A DNA stretch of 49,024 bases from Promethearchaeota archaeon (GCA_029838195.1 JALGVJ010000029.1:1-49024), one strand, 5' to 3'; positions 1,708 to 28,687 are shown, counted from the stretch's first letter. The notes: a model not told the origin generated them from the letters alone. Translations and numbers: made by a program.

Positions 1708-1965
1708 ATGACAGAATATCGTTTTCGATTAACCGGCGTGCCTCCTGATCAAGCCATCAAAGTAATCGATTTGGATCCAGAGCAAAGCGTAGGAGATATC
1801 AAAAAGCGTGTCCAAAAGGAATATAAGCTAAACCCGATCCTTGCCACGCAGTTTATATTCAAGGGAAAAGTACTCCCTGACGATCTTAAGTTTTCAAAAG
1901 TCGGGATCCATCCTAAGAAGGACGTGATTACCGTAATGGCCACGCAAGCAGGAGGAAAAATGTAA
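1708..1965 (+). CDS. Ubiquitin-like (beta-grasp) protein with di-glycine motif and 2-residue C-terminal extension
   Basis: 85 aa; SVGDIKKRV helix, QFIFKGKVL (cf. ubiquitin RLIFAGKQL), ends QAGG-KM. Confidence 0.85.
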   Translation: MTEYRFRLTGVPPDQAIKVIDLDPEQSVGDIKKRVQKEYKLNPILATQFIFKGKVLPDDLKFSKVGIHPKKDVITVMATQAGGKM

Positions 1966-1993: not shown

Positions 1994-2017
1994 TTTTATT
2001 TTTACTTTTATTTTTTT
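1994..2017 (+). terminator. Oligo-T tract, likely archaeal terminator of the ubiquitin-like gene
   Basis: Several T runs about 30 nt after the stop codon. Confidence 0.4.
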
Positions 2018-2190: not shown

Positions 2191-2376
2191 TTAAAACCTT
2201 AAGGGTTCAGGGCGGGGTCTCTGAGGGGCTGGACCACGCTCTGGAATGGGAGGTGGAACAAAAGGAATGGGTCTTTTGATCCAATGTTCTAAAGATGTAA
2301 GCCTTTTTTCAATATTTTCTATTTTTTCTTCCAACCTTTTTATTCTTTCTATTAAATTGGGATGTTCTACTGACAT
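2191..2376 (-). CDS. Small coiled-coil protein with proline-rich C-terminus
   Basis: 61 aa; heptad pattern LIERIKRLEEKIENIEKRLTSLE followed by RPIPFVPPPIPERGPAPQRPRPEP. Confidence 0.65.
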   Translation of the reverse strand: MSVEHPNLIERIKRLEEKIENIEKRLTSLEHWIKRPIPFVPPPIPERGPAPQRPRPEPLRF

Positions 2377-2686: not shown

Positions 2687-4078
2687 TTGATGTCAATTTG
2701 GAATGTGTCGGATAAAGTAAAAGAAAAAATATTAGATGCTGTTCAAAAATTAGAGGATAATGAAATCAAAATATTATTTCTTCTTAAAAATTTAGGCCCT
2801 CTAAGATTTACGGATTTAATAGAACATTCTGGCTTGAGCAGATCAACGGTTTCCAAATATTTAAAAATAAATATTAATAAGAATTGCGTGGAGAAAAACC
2901 TATTTTTTGATAAATCTGCTAATACTAAAGAGCAGAGATATTTTATAACGCAGATGGGGCTTGAGAGATTAAATGATTTATCTCCAGAAAGAGCAGGATT
3001 TGTATTATTTAATGAAGTAAATACCCGCATTTCTCAACTTTCCGAATTAATTGATTTCTACGAAAAAATAGGTATTGAGGATTCTATTATTCTTGAGATT
3101 CTTCAAATCGTCTTAAAGATAGGAGATAATTTCTTCTTGATGGAACAAAATAAAGATCTTTATTTGACTCTTTTCTATATTTTTTTAAATTCAGTTTCGA
3201 CTCCTGATTATAAATTAGAAATACATGAGTTTTGTCGGCTCTATAGCGTGAAAAAGGTAAGAATTGATTTTTATATTGATAAAATCATGTCCAATCAGCT
3301 CGGATTCTACATGTTCACGAGATACAATGAAGGAGAAGGAAGGCAATCATTCCAAGACATCTTTTTTTTTCATGAAGAGGATATCATTGGTACCACGACC
3401 TTACGATTAATCAAGGATAAATTGCTCTCCGAAATGCTTCACGTGAATTTGTCGGGTTATAAACCGTTTTATGACCTAGATGAAATTGCCGAAGAAATAG
3501 CAAGTAAATTAATTAAAATGGCCCTCATATGGGAAAGAATCAAGGAACCATTTGAAATGCTTATAGAGAAAATCTTCATTAAAACAGCGGTAGATGCGGG
3601 CTTCTCAAAACCTTTCTTGATGGATATGGTGATTCAGTCAGAAAAAATTTTAAAATCAAGAGAAGGGATGGAATCTCTGATTCGTATTATAGAAGGTTCG
3701 CAGCGATATGAAGATTTGAACATCGTTTCCATTTCTGAATCTCCACCAGCTTTTAAAGAGGATCTGTTAGAAAACATAAAAGGATTTTGTTATTTTTGCG
3801 GTAAGACCATTCTAAAAAACGAATTATCTAATACTTGTTCAAAATGTGGAAATGTTTTAGAGGTAAAAAAATTATTAAGAAGTCTTGACGATGCTTTTGA
3901 AGTTAGCAAGAAATTTAAAGAAAAAAAACTCCAAGAAGATCTATTAATTGAATGTCCTAATCCCAAATGTTCTTTCATGGTAAAGGTAAATTGGGAACGA
4001 TGTCCTGAGTGTAATGCTCTCATCAAGAAAAGCCCTACTCGAAAGGGGTTTTGGTCTTCTTCTAGGAAAAAAAAGTGA
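2687..4078 (+). CDS. Winged-HTH (MarR/ArsR-like) protein with C-terminal zinc ribbons
   Basis: LRFTDLIEHSGLSRSTVSKYL...YFITQMG wHTH; CYFC/CSKC and CPNPKC/CPEC pairs. Confidence 0.75.
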   Translation: MMSIWNVSDKVKEKILDAVQKLEDNEIKILFLLKNLGPLRFTDLIEHSGLSRSTVSKYLKININKNCVEKNLFFDKSANTKEQRYFITQMGLERLNDLSPERAGFVLFNEVNTRISQLSELIDFYEKIGIEDSIILEILQIVLKIGDNFFLMEQNKDLYLTLFYIFLNSVSTPDYKLEIHEFCRLYSVKKVRIDFYIDKIMSNQLGFYMFTRYNEGEGRQSFQDIFFFHEEDIIGTTTLRLIKDKLLSEMLHVNLSGYKPFYDLDEIAEEIASKLIKMALIWERIKEPFEMLIEKIFIKTAVDAGFSKPFLMDMVIQSEKILKSREGMESLIRIIEGSQRYEDLNIVSISESPPAFKEDLLENIKGFCYFCGKTILKNELSNTCSKCGNVLEVKKLLRSLDDAFEVSKKFKEKKLQEDLLIECPNPKCSFMVKVNWERCPECNALIKKSPTRKGFWSSSRKKK

Positions 4079-8063: not shown

Positions 8064-8813
8064 CTATTGCGAGCAAATGCATTTCTCGCTTTTAATTACA
8101 TCAATGATGTTAAATGAAAATTCTAATAAATTCACCATTAACAATTTGTTTTCTAAGTTCGGCAAACCTAAAGCCGTTTTTATCACCTCTAAAGCTTCAA
8201 GAGTGCCTAAAATCCCGGGAGTAACTCCTATAACGGGTAAAGGCCCTTCTGATTTGTGATCTTGGGGAGGTTCACTAAAAATACATTGATAACACGCACT
8301 TTTTCTCGGATTAATCGTTAAGATTTGACCATAAAAATCTTTTATACCCGCAATAACACATTTTATCCCATGGTTGACTGCAACTCGATTAACTAAAAAC
8401 TTAGTCTCTAAATTATCACTGCAATCGACAATGAAATCTTGATTGTCTATATATTTTTCAATGGAATTCTCATCCACGAAATCTTTATGGGCATGAACCG
8501 TAATGCTCGAATTTTTTCTTTCTAACACCCTCTTAGCAACTTTTACTTTCTCTTCTCCAATATCCGCTTCATCATAAAGAATCTGCCGCTGTAAATTTGA
8601 AAGAGACACTACATCATTATCTATGATGGTTAATTCCTTAATTCCGGCCGCAGTCATGTATAAAGCAAAAGGAGATCCCAAGCCTCCCACGCCAATCTGT
8701 AAAATGCGTAAATTACTAAGAATTTCTTGCCCCTTTTCTCCAATAGATGGTGAAATAATTTGCCGAGAATACCTCTCGTAATCAACATTTTTATTTTGGA
8801 ACGTAATATTCAT
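8064..8813 (-). CDS. ThiF/MoeB/HesA family E1-like adenylyltransferase
   Basis: RYSRQI, GVGGLG, DNDVVSLSNLQRQIL, DCSDN, CYQC and CIC zinc ligands. Confidence 0.9.
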   Translation of the reverse strand: MNITFQNKNVDYERYSRQIISPSIGEKGQEILSNLRILQIGVGGLGSPFALYMTAAGIKELTIIDNDVVSLSNLQRQILYDEADIGEEKVKVAKRVLERKNSSITVHAHKDFVDENSIEKYIDNQDFIVDCSDNLETKFLVNRVAVNHGIKCVIAGIKDFYGQILTINPRKSACYQCIFSEPPQDHKSEGPLPVIGVTPGILGTLEALEVIKTALGLPNLENKLLMVNLLEFSFNIIDVIKSEKCICSQ

Positions 8814-9218
8814 TCACCTAGATAAAATGTTCTTGAGCTTTTTTATTAAAATTTCCATTTCTATTAAAATTAAACCAAAATCGACATTCTCGATTCTAAG
8901 GAGAACCGCTAAATAATAATTCTTATTAATTTCAAATACAATTACTTGAACATTCTCAAATTGAATCGTTACATGAAATAATTGATCGTTCTTTAACCAA
9001 GGAAGAAATATAGCTTCAAATGCTTTAACAATATTCATGAGTTTAATTCCAAACATCTTAATATCATCAATATCTCCCTTTAACCGCGAGCTTAGCACGT
9101 GCCCCTCCCGATTAATTATTGCCGTGCCGTATAGTTCATGATTAATTTCAAGTTTCTTTAATTCATTATTTATTTCTTCTAATTCTATAGAATTAATTAT
9201 CGTCATGGTAATGTGCAA
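8814..9218 (-). CDS. Roadblock/LC7 domain protein
   Basis: GTAIINREGHVLSSRL, VTIQFENVQVIVFEI, DFGLILIEM pattern; stop codon abuts the ThiF start. Confidence 0.75.
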   Translation of the reverse strand: MHITMTIINSIELEEINNELKKLEINHELYGTAIINREGHVLSSRLKGDIDDIKMFGIKLMNIVKAFEAIFLPWLKNDQLFHVTIQFENVQVIVFEINKNYYLAVLLRIENVDFGLILIEMEILIKKLKNILSR

Positions 9219-9585: not shown

Positions 9586-9903
9586 TTAATCTTCTTCTGG
9601 CTCTTCTTCAGATATTTTTTTTAAATGTTCTTCCTCTTCCATTTCGGAAAAAACTAGTTTTTCTCGCTCCTGGCCGATGAATATTATAGATGCCCCTCGT
9701 ATCATGATCGTCCCTAGATCCTTGCTGCGCTTTCCACCTCGTCCAAAATATATTTCCTTGGCATTTTTCACGATTAAATTCATGTAATTATCAAATCGAA
9801 CCAACTTTCCCGTGATATACGTGTTCCAAATTTTTAATTTTATTCTTACTTCGTCTTTTAAGATAGCTTTGCTAAGGGTGCTCTTGATAGTGTGTTGAGA
9901 CAT
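9586..9903 (-). CDS. Sm-like (LSm/SmAP) RNA-binding protein with acidic tail
   Basis: Sm1 GKLVRFDNYMNLIVKNA and Sm2 IMIRG; conserved position upstream of rpl37e. Confidence 0.88.
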   Translation of the reverse strand: MSQHTIKSTLSKAILKDEVRIKLKIWNTYITGKLVRFDNYMNLIVKNAKEIYFGRGGKRSKDLGTIMIRGASIIFIGQEREKLVFSEMEEEEHLKKISEEEPEED

Positions 9904-28087: not shown

Positions 28088-28687
28088 TTGAACATGAGTG
28101 GAAATTCGGAAGGAAAAGTTGAAAAGTCTCAAATTGAAGGTATCATTGAAAAAGATAAAGTACTCATTCGCGATAATGAAGGAATTAATGATTTTTATAA
28201 AAATTCATATATTGGAACATTAGAACAGCGCGATAAAGGCGAGCAAGTGTTAATATTAGATCCCATTGAAGTCTTGCTCTTATGTGAGAGAAAAAGAATT
28301 CTTCTCTGGGAAAATAATGATAAAAAGAAAAAGCAACACGATTTTGAAAGCTTGTTATCTTACTTTACTCAATTTGATGAAAAATTATGGTATAAATATA
28401 TCATTTATTCAGATTTAAGAAAAAGGGGCTACATTGTCCGATTAGGCTATGGCGATGGCATCGATTTCATGGTATACAAGCGAGGAGCGGATTTTGAAAA
28501 CGAATCTGCTAAATATTTAATATATACAGTATTCGAAGGTTCACCGATCGAATTAAGAGAGTTAGATATCATTTCTAGAATTGCAATGAGCTCCCGAAAA
28601 GACCTCATTATTGCTACAGTGGATAGATTAAGCAAGGCTGTCTATTATAGCATTAAAAAATTTGAAATTTTAAATAAATCATCTTGA
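28088..28687 (+). CDS. endA: tRNA-intron endonuclease subunit (probably the structural beta type)
   Basis: LDPIEVLLL, YIIYSDLRKRGYIV, DFMVYKRG, SSRK; expected catalytic His absent (NESAKYL). Confidence 0.85.
   Translation: MNMSGNSEGKVEKSQIEGIIEKDKVLIRDNEGINDFYKNSYIGTLEQRDKGEQVLILDPIEVLLLCERKRILLWENNDKKKKQHDFESLLSYFTQFDEKLWYKYIIYSDLRKRGYIVRLGYGDGIDFMVYKRGADFENESAKYLIYTVFEGSPIELRELDIISRIAMSSRKDLIIATVDRLSKAVYYSIKKFEILNKSS

Follow-up and report, generated by a model that had tools for sequence, protein, structure and literature searches.

The gene at 1708..1965 of the window, which is the whole stretch of DNA analysed (49,024 nucleotides of a Promethearchaeota archaeon, the entire contig C8 of its genome), is by its sequence the ubiquitin gene of Lokiarchaeia: it stands alone, codes for a precursor of 85 residues and is an ortholog of the published Lokiarch_37670 'Ub'. 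Its product is probably a true modifier, one that would be trimmed, adenylated, conjugated and read by UEV/ESCRT-I. The earlier note on this DNA had proposed a second Asgard modifier; the protein had already been published as Lokiarchaeal ubiquitin and is therefore not new, and as the ortholog of Lokiarch_37670 Ub it falls in with canonical Asgard ubiquitin. With the protein published and its relatives annotated by NCBI, the window ubiquitin is a rediscovery. The gene and its parts are:

1708..1965, plus strand: ubiquitin precursor gene with ATG start, 85 codons and TAA stop (from the ORF list, PF00240 and orthologs).
1708..1956, plus strand: predicted mature ubiquitin, residues 1-83, ending in Gly82-Gly83 (from the model, tail conservation and HMMER alignment).
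1957..1962, plus strand: C-terminal dipeptide Lys84-Met85, which would be removed (from the variable residues past Gly-Gly among 80 loci).
1994..2017, plus strand: T-rich tract 3' of the ubiquitin stop, a possible archaeal terminator (by eye only).

The sequence is as first described, with a product that ends in KKDVITVMATQAGG-KM and contains QFIFKGKVL. The ORF is a real gene, far above chance, because it scores 37.6 bits with PF00240 (Pfam ubiquitin) against a gathering cut-off of 25.4 and is matched by 175 database proteins at E ≤ 0.01. All 45 aligned family members score as Pfam ubiquitin. The 120 listed of the 175 matches share 66-93% identity with the window ubiquitin and come from Promethearchaeota or Lokiarchaeota records, several of them under the NCBI name 'ubiquitin-like protein'. 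A relative is encoded in 153 species-representative genomes. In the genome searches for the distribution of Ubls and E1s, where at most 18 candidates were scored per genome and misses are unreliable, the window-type ubiquitin was present in 67/77 sampled genomes of the same class (E below 1e-26), and in other families of the phylum the count was 0/212, except for weak matches (E about 1e-6) in family f29. Within its class the protein is near-universal and very strongly conserved. Window-type ubiquitin is also carried by loci labelled Nanopelagicaceae bacterium, Thorarchaeota, Hermodarchaeota or Hodarchaeota (L084, L025, L047, L072, L010 and L015); their gene order is Lokiarchaeial, and their taxon labels or contig binning look doubtful.

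Fused relatives of the window ubiquitin were examined in P0177, P0174, P0121, P0132, P0154 and P0265. Ubiquitin-family domains occur N-terminal or internal in proteins of 400-2200 aa without known domains, some of them without Gly-Gly, as a tandem pair in P0121 and fused with a TIR domain in P0174. In P0177, a truncated relative, a Hint-like start follows directly after Gly-Gly (Hint 24.2 bits, below the Pfam cut-off of 29.7). A paralog in the genome of the window (L002:1279-1698, contig C87) is 44% identical to the window ubiquitin, has an N-terminal extension or arm and terminates exactly at Gly-Gly (...DTITVMAVMNGG).

The sequence of 'Lokiarch_37670|Ub' is given in Supplementary Data 1 of Hatano et al. 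2022, Nat Commun (PMC9192718). Counted by eye, 69/83 core positions are identical between this protein and that of the window, with 14 substitutions. Parts of the same article report that Lokiarchaeota ubiquitin interacts with UEV-domain proteins in the yeast two-hybrid system (PMC9192718), and part of a preprint (10.1101/2025.11.01.685982) describes 'MK-D1 ubiquitin', perhaps of the same family, placed in human cells; nothing was found in these parts of the two sources about whether the Lokiarchaeal protein is processed or conjugated.

An AlphaFold2 model of the window protein was built from the 45-member family alignment, and on this model we are confident of a ubiquitin-type beta-grasp fold. 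Mean pLDDT is 90.5, the elements are E2-8, H13-16, E17-22, H28-38, E45-51 and E73-80, and disorder is confined to residues 83-85 (pLDDT below 50). A Foldseek comparison with the PDB placed ubiquitin in the first rank (TMq 0.73-0.76, TMt 0.80-0.83), SUMO-3 at rank 5 (TMq 0.62), Caldiarchaeum ubiquitin (6fnn_C) at rank 10 (TMq 0.75) and NEDD8 at rank 23. When sequence profiles are compared, the closest single-domain entries of the PDB are the UBL domains of Get5/Mdy2 (4.9e-8) and RAD23B (2.6e-6), with mono-ubiquitin at about 2e-3. The HMMER alignment to ubiquitin, which begins at residue 20, sets I50 on Ile44 and G53-K54 on Gly47-Lys48; L8-T9-G10 pairs with Leu8-Thr9-Gly10 of ubiquitin by eye only, and the six-residue insertion VPPDQA that follows it forms a short helical turn in the model.

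The last 14 residues up to Gly-Gly (KKDVITVMATQAGG) are the same in 80/80 species loci; DVITVMATQ was one of the two patterns used to find these loci and its conservation is partly forced, with only AGG and the stop position as free observations. Past Gly-Gly, 18 loci have no residue, 55 have one, four have two, two have three and a single locus has 13, and the first of these residues varies widely, so that the Lys-Met of the window is an ordinary variant among the tails of the family. Gly-Gly is likewise present in 114/120 listed database proteins, the six exceptions being truncated or frame-shifted at the end. The earlier note had asked for conservation of QxGG plus an extension among Asgard homologs, which the 80 loci bear out with an invariant Gly-Gly and a variable extension, and it had held that exposure of Gly-Gly requires trimming of the extension, as an invariant Gly-Gly followed by variable residues would suggest. 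An end of this kind fits the signature of a modifier needing C-terminal trimming. The last trypsin site of the window ubiquitin is Lys71; a lysine conjugate would therefore leave a 12-residue DVITVMATQAGG remnant, not di-Gly, and the di-Gly proteomics suggested in the earlier note would miss its conjugates.

The neighbourhood of the gene was surveyed by a Pfam run on 39 ORFs of the contig (38 of at least 100 aa) and by six-frame genome searches. The observation that no E2, E3 or JAB gene lies nearby holds for the whole contig by both approaches. The six-frame searches found UQ_con matches on C26, C72 and C4, JAB and Prok-JAB matches on C7, C72, C26 and C19, and RING matches on C1, C66, C37 and C35, with none of any kind on C8. 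Nor is an E1, E2, E3 or JAB gene linked to the ubiquitin gene in 80 related loci. The neighbours referred to in the following are:

2191..2376, minus strand: small 61-aa protein with an N-terminal coiled-coil helix, a proline-rich stretch and a C-terminal PEPFRF (in 51/80 loci).
2687..4078, plus strand: winged-helix HTH and zinc-ribbon protein, 463 aa (in 76/80 loci; Pfam HTH_5, MarR).
8064..8813, minus strand: MoeB/ThiF/UbaA-type E1-like adenylyltransferase, 249 aa, here ThiF249 (Pfam ThiF, 224 bits).
28088..28687, plus strand: tRNA splicing endonuclease, 26 kb from the ubiquitin gene here and 3-5 kb from it in most relatives.

In 32/80 loci a ThiF gene is no more than 8 kb away from the ubiquitin gene, among them L045 and L047, where it follows directly downstream; this count, like the 76 and the 51, is a lower bound, as contig ends truncate many of the loci. 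Also recurrent in the neighbourhood are NadA, a HycI-like protease, an LRR protein, EndA (the tRNA splicing endonuclease), a PIN-ATPase and DUF362, and further a short-chain dehydrogenase, SIR2, a flavodoxin-like protein and Roadblock. We read this neighbourhood as a conserved genome backbone of unrelated genes, not as an operon. The 61-aa gene is usually found just upstream of the ubiquitin gene and co-oriented with it; in the window the two genes are on opposite strands, the ubiquitin gene being the inverted one. Its PEPFRF looks invariant and the protein belongs to no known family. Complex prediction for ubiquitin with this neighbour scored 0.00, which is no answer and evidence neither way.

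The ThiF249 gene, 6.1 kb from the ubiquitin gene, was missed by the earlier note. Its nearest NCBIfam models are MoeB, ThiF and UbaA, and it scores below every curated cut-off. The CxxC...CxC (zinc) cysteines are present and there is none in the crossover loop. SepCysS, a sulfur-handling enzyme, is encoded between the ubiquitin and ThiF249 genes. The adjoining 134-aa ORF (8814..9218, minus strand) was considered as an E2 or JAB and rejected: the window copy is without a Pfam match and its ortholog matches Roadblock/LC7 (PF03259).

Conjugation enzymes are encoded elsewhere in the genome. On C26 a Ubl of 118 aa stands in a row with an E1 (407 aa), an E2 (175 aa), a JAB protein (265 aa) and an uncharacterised 389-aa gene, and on C72 there is a second E1, with an E2 gene 0.8 kb away:

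L008:9759-14042 (contig C26): Ubl-E1-E2-JAB operon, with the Ubl gene at 9759..10115 of L008.
L090:7523-9109 (contig C72), plus strand: eukaryote-like E1, 528 aa, whose ThiF domain contains a large insertion and whose gene has no Ubl gene next to it.

The 528-aa E1 is conserved at 61-77% identity across the family and was matched in 40/41 family genomes, including the present one, at E ≤ 1e-40; most of them also show a second match, of the 407-aa type. An MIT/TPR protein, a Ras-family GTPase and a subtilase are encoded near it. Five JAB/MPN proteins are found in the genome, on C26, C7, C19 and, with two, C72. The operon Ubl is 27% identical to the window protein, and its own family (643 matches) has an acidic N-terminal arm and the end ...LLIPASTAG (Ala-Gly) followed by 0-3 variable residues. 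It shares with the window ubiquitin the Pfam ubiquitin match, class-wide conservation and a terminal pair of small residues with 0-3 variable residues behind it, but it adjoins E1, E2 and JAB genes, whereas the window ubiquitin stands alone. The idea of two modifiers therefore holds for this organism, in that its operon encodes another, different Ubl of modifier type, although the gene flagged as the second one is the known ubiquitin.

For the window ubiquitin the following course may be proposed. Lys-Met would be clipped after Gly83 by a deubiquitinase-type peptidase, with the five JAB/MPN proteins as candidates by analogy with Caldiarchaeum Rpn11; in parts of PMC6043591 (PDB 6fnn) the Caldiarchaeum subterraneum protein is described as an archaeal ubiquitin precursor that is trimmed by this JAMM/Rpn11 peptidase. 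Gly83 would then be adenylated by an E1 encoded elsewhere, either the orphan 528-aa E1 on C72 or the 407-aa operon E1 on C26, less likely by the nearby MoeB-type enzyme. The activated ubiquitin would be handed on to an E2 and joined to target proteins through their lysines, and in free or attached form it might be read by UEV-domain ESCRT-I proteins, as its Lokiarchaeum ortholog is in the two-hybrid assay. The observed basis for a modifier consists of fold, conservation and the binding by the ortholog; the enzymatic steps are all inferred. The assignment of enzymes to the window ubiquitin is a matter of guesses, because its neighbours are unrelated and no conjugation gene is linked to it in 80 loci.

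Whether the two E1s serve separate Ubls was approached by pairing through co-occurrence, which was dropped as either type of Ubl and either type of E1 is conserved and near-universal in the family. Tentatively, and with more doubt than belief, we suggest two parallel pathways, one of the Gly-Gly ubiquitin with the 528-aa E1 and the C72 E2, the other of the Ala-Gly Ubl with its own E1-E2-JAB operon. If true, this would be a split comparable to that of ubiquitin versus SUMO or NEDD8, before or beside eukaryotes.

As an alternative to a modifier the protein could be a non-conjugated Ubl adaptor with non-covalent binding only (to UEV/ESCRT-I, proteasome- or chaperone-type receptors, like the UBL of RAD23 or Get5), its Gly-Gly end being structural or vestigial; taken together, we consider this unlikely. 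The best single-domain profile matches in the PDB are indeed the UBL domains of Get5/Mdy2 and RAD23, and the NCBIfam match is rad23. Family members serve as N-terminal UBL domains of long proteins, the gene is without a linked conjugation enzyme in 80 loci, and the functional datum for the ortholog is a binding assay. Against these points stand Gly-Gly in 80/80 loci and a stop 0-3 codons later in 79/80, a pattern that modifiers typically show and UBL domains do not, and a genome in which two E1s have been retained together with several E2-like and five JAB genes.

The likeness to SUMO noted earlier is real at the C-terminus. Compared by eye with the SUMO1 tail as quoted in the earlier note (D-V-I-x-V-x-x-x-Q-x-G-G), the window tail agrees in 7/12 positions; the residues following strand 5 are five in number and arginine-free (TQAGG), nearer to EQTGG of SUMO than to LRGG of ubiquitin; and the SUMO trait of a QxGG tail with a propeptide is present as ...TQAGG-KM. 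The likeness is local, and of the mixed ubiquitin and SUMO features that had been claimed nothing SUMO-like was found beyond this tail. SUMO character does not extend to the whole protein, as 45/45 family members match Pfam ubiquitin and the window protein is without a match to Rad60-SLD (PF11976) at E up to 10. In our view the protein is unlikely to be a second modifier of SUMO type that has a pathway to itself and stands apart from a 'true' Asgard ubiquitin. This reading draws on the DVIxV...QxGG tail plus extension, on Rad60-SLD matches in 28/45 family members at E ≤ 0.01 (always weaker than ubiquitin), on the Foldseek rank of SUMO-3 and on the presence of a different Ubl in the E1-E2-JAB operon. 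It is opposed by the missing PF11976 match of the window protein itself and by the best 60 PDB profile matches, which contain Get5/Mdy2 UBL, RAD23 UBL and ubiquitin and no SUMO chain. The AlphaFold2 model speaks in the same sense, as strand 1 is predicted to begin at residue 2 and leaves no flexible N-terminal arm before the beta-grasp. A C48/Ulp/SENP protease above cut-off was not found in the genome, where the best PF02902 match reaches 17.1 bits (cut-off 20.7) and lies in a reading frame interrupted by two stops, and the protein is the published Lokiarchaeal ubiquitin. That TQAGG looks like a SUMO tail probably stems from the specificity of the archaeal E1 that would act on it, rather than from an ancestor-descendant relation with SUMO.

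A SAMP/Urm1-like dual-function sulfur carrier, activated by ThiF249 for tRNA thiolation or cofactor synthesis and perhaps sampylation, would accord with the ThiF gene within 8 kb in 32/80 loci (directly downstream in L045 and L047) and with the SepCysS gene in between, but is very unlikely, since genome-wide searches with ThiS (PF02597) and Urm1 (PF09138) match seven and one other places and not C8:1708-1965, the protein matches Pfam ubiquitin and among solved structures resembles ubiquitin most, the genes that the loci share around it (NadA, EndA, SIR2, short-chain dehydrogenase) form a conserved backbone without relation to each other, and the ortholog binds UEV proteins.

A second observation concerns the genes of the ubiquitin system in some Lokiarchaeia, where insertions of 30-31 nt in ubiquitin, E2 and E1 genes are candidate bulge-helix-bulge mRNA mini-introns on the strength of their sequences. 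About 10 extra residues within strand 5 are present in 14/120 listed relatives of the ubiquitin. At the nucleotide level a 30-nt insertion in the strand-5 codons was located in seven distinct metagenome loci, not in the window gene:

L091:1710-1765, L092:1710-1765, L093:1195-1250 and L094:1710-1765: ubiquitin genes with insertion.
L096:854-909, L097:1668-1723 and L099:819-874: ubiquitin genes with insertion, that of L099 with an in-frame TAG inside.

The insertions have the common boundaries ...GTNATAA / 30 nt / CCGTN..., and their removal restores DVITVM in 7/7 loci. The RNA folds into helix, 4-bp helix, 3-nt bulge, hairpin, 4-bp helix, 3-nt bulge and helix, and both junctions fall after the second bulge base. 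A junction at this place is the geometry of archaeal bulge-helix-bulge introns. Pairing in the fold is realized in 87.4% of cells versus 33-54% with the 3' partners slid, five pairs show double changes, and RNAalifold recovers the same core. The ubiquitin insertion is regarded as a candidate mRNA mini-intron because of this bulge-helix-bulge fit with compensatory changes.

Comparable insertions were observed in genes of the conjugation enzymes:

L090:9927-10467 (contig C72; equal to L171:3908-4445), minus strand: split second E2 gene.
L185:97-1713, L186:92-1708, L187:92-1708 (minus strand) and L188:93-1679 (minus strand): 528-aa E1 orthologs with insertion.

In the genome of the window the second E2 (UQ_con) gene is interrupted by 31 inserted nt, which contain an in-frame TAG and shift the frame. 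At the same site a genome of the same genus has 30 nt, and three other genera have no insertion and read PPYAYAVTLMWHPN, which is restored upon removal of the 31 nt. If spliced, the joined E2 sequence is predicted to read ...CCTCCAT followed by ATGCATAT..., and the insertion fold consists of a 4-bp helix, a 3-nt bulge and a hairpin. In the E1 orthologs, from four genomes of one other genus, the GVGAL|GCEIAKD nucleotide-binding (Rossmann) motif is interrupted by 30 nt that include two in-frame stops; the three that were folded (L185-L187) give a 9-bp hairpin with bulge-helix-bulge-like junctions. Related archaeal introns are described in parts of the published record on crenarchaeal Cbf5 pre-mRNA (PMC2738675) and, for Asgard tRNA, of a preprint (bioRxiv 2026.10.13.758758); the literature searched yielded these Cbf5 and tRNA introns only and no report of Asgard mRNA introns. 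Should RNA data confirm them, the mini-introns would be of greater weight than the ubiquitin finding itself.

Among known systems, SUMO1 has in common with the window protein the tail pattern, the five residues after beta5 and a C-terminal propeptide; the N-terminal arm and the PF11976 match are missing from the window protein and an Ulp/SENP protease passing the cut-off from its genome, and solved SUMO chains rank below ubiquitin. In the operon type known from Caldiarchaeum and Asgard archaea the Ubl gene lies beside those of E1, E2 and JAB, none of which is on the window contig; the ubiquitin of Caldiarchaeum subterraneum is in an operon with E1, E2, RING and Rpn11, whereas the window ubiquitin gene stands alone. 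With eukaryotic ubiquitin the window protein has in common the beta-grasp fold (TMt about 0.8), counterparts of Ile44 and Lys48 (by HMMER) and of Leu8 (by eye), and the C-terminal Gly-Gly. Eukaryotic ubiquitin genes, too, often have one extra residue past Gly-Gly. The two differ in that identity in structural alignments is only 16-20%, that VPPDQA is inserted in the beta1-beta2 loop of the window protein, and that its tail TQAGG is one residue longer than in LRLRGG and without arginines. Closest is Lokiarch_37670 of Lokiarchaeum sp. GC14_75: it differs by the 14 substitutions, mostly in the beta2-alpha1 region, and by the extension past Gly-Gly (ISIIH versus KM), and it shares with the window protein the family, the length, the FRLTGVPPDQAIK loop and the DVITVMATQAGG tail, and is likewise encoded by a stand-alone gene with a short extension past Gly-Gly.
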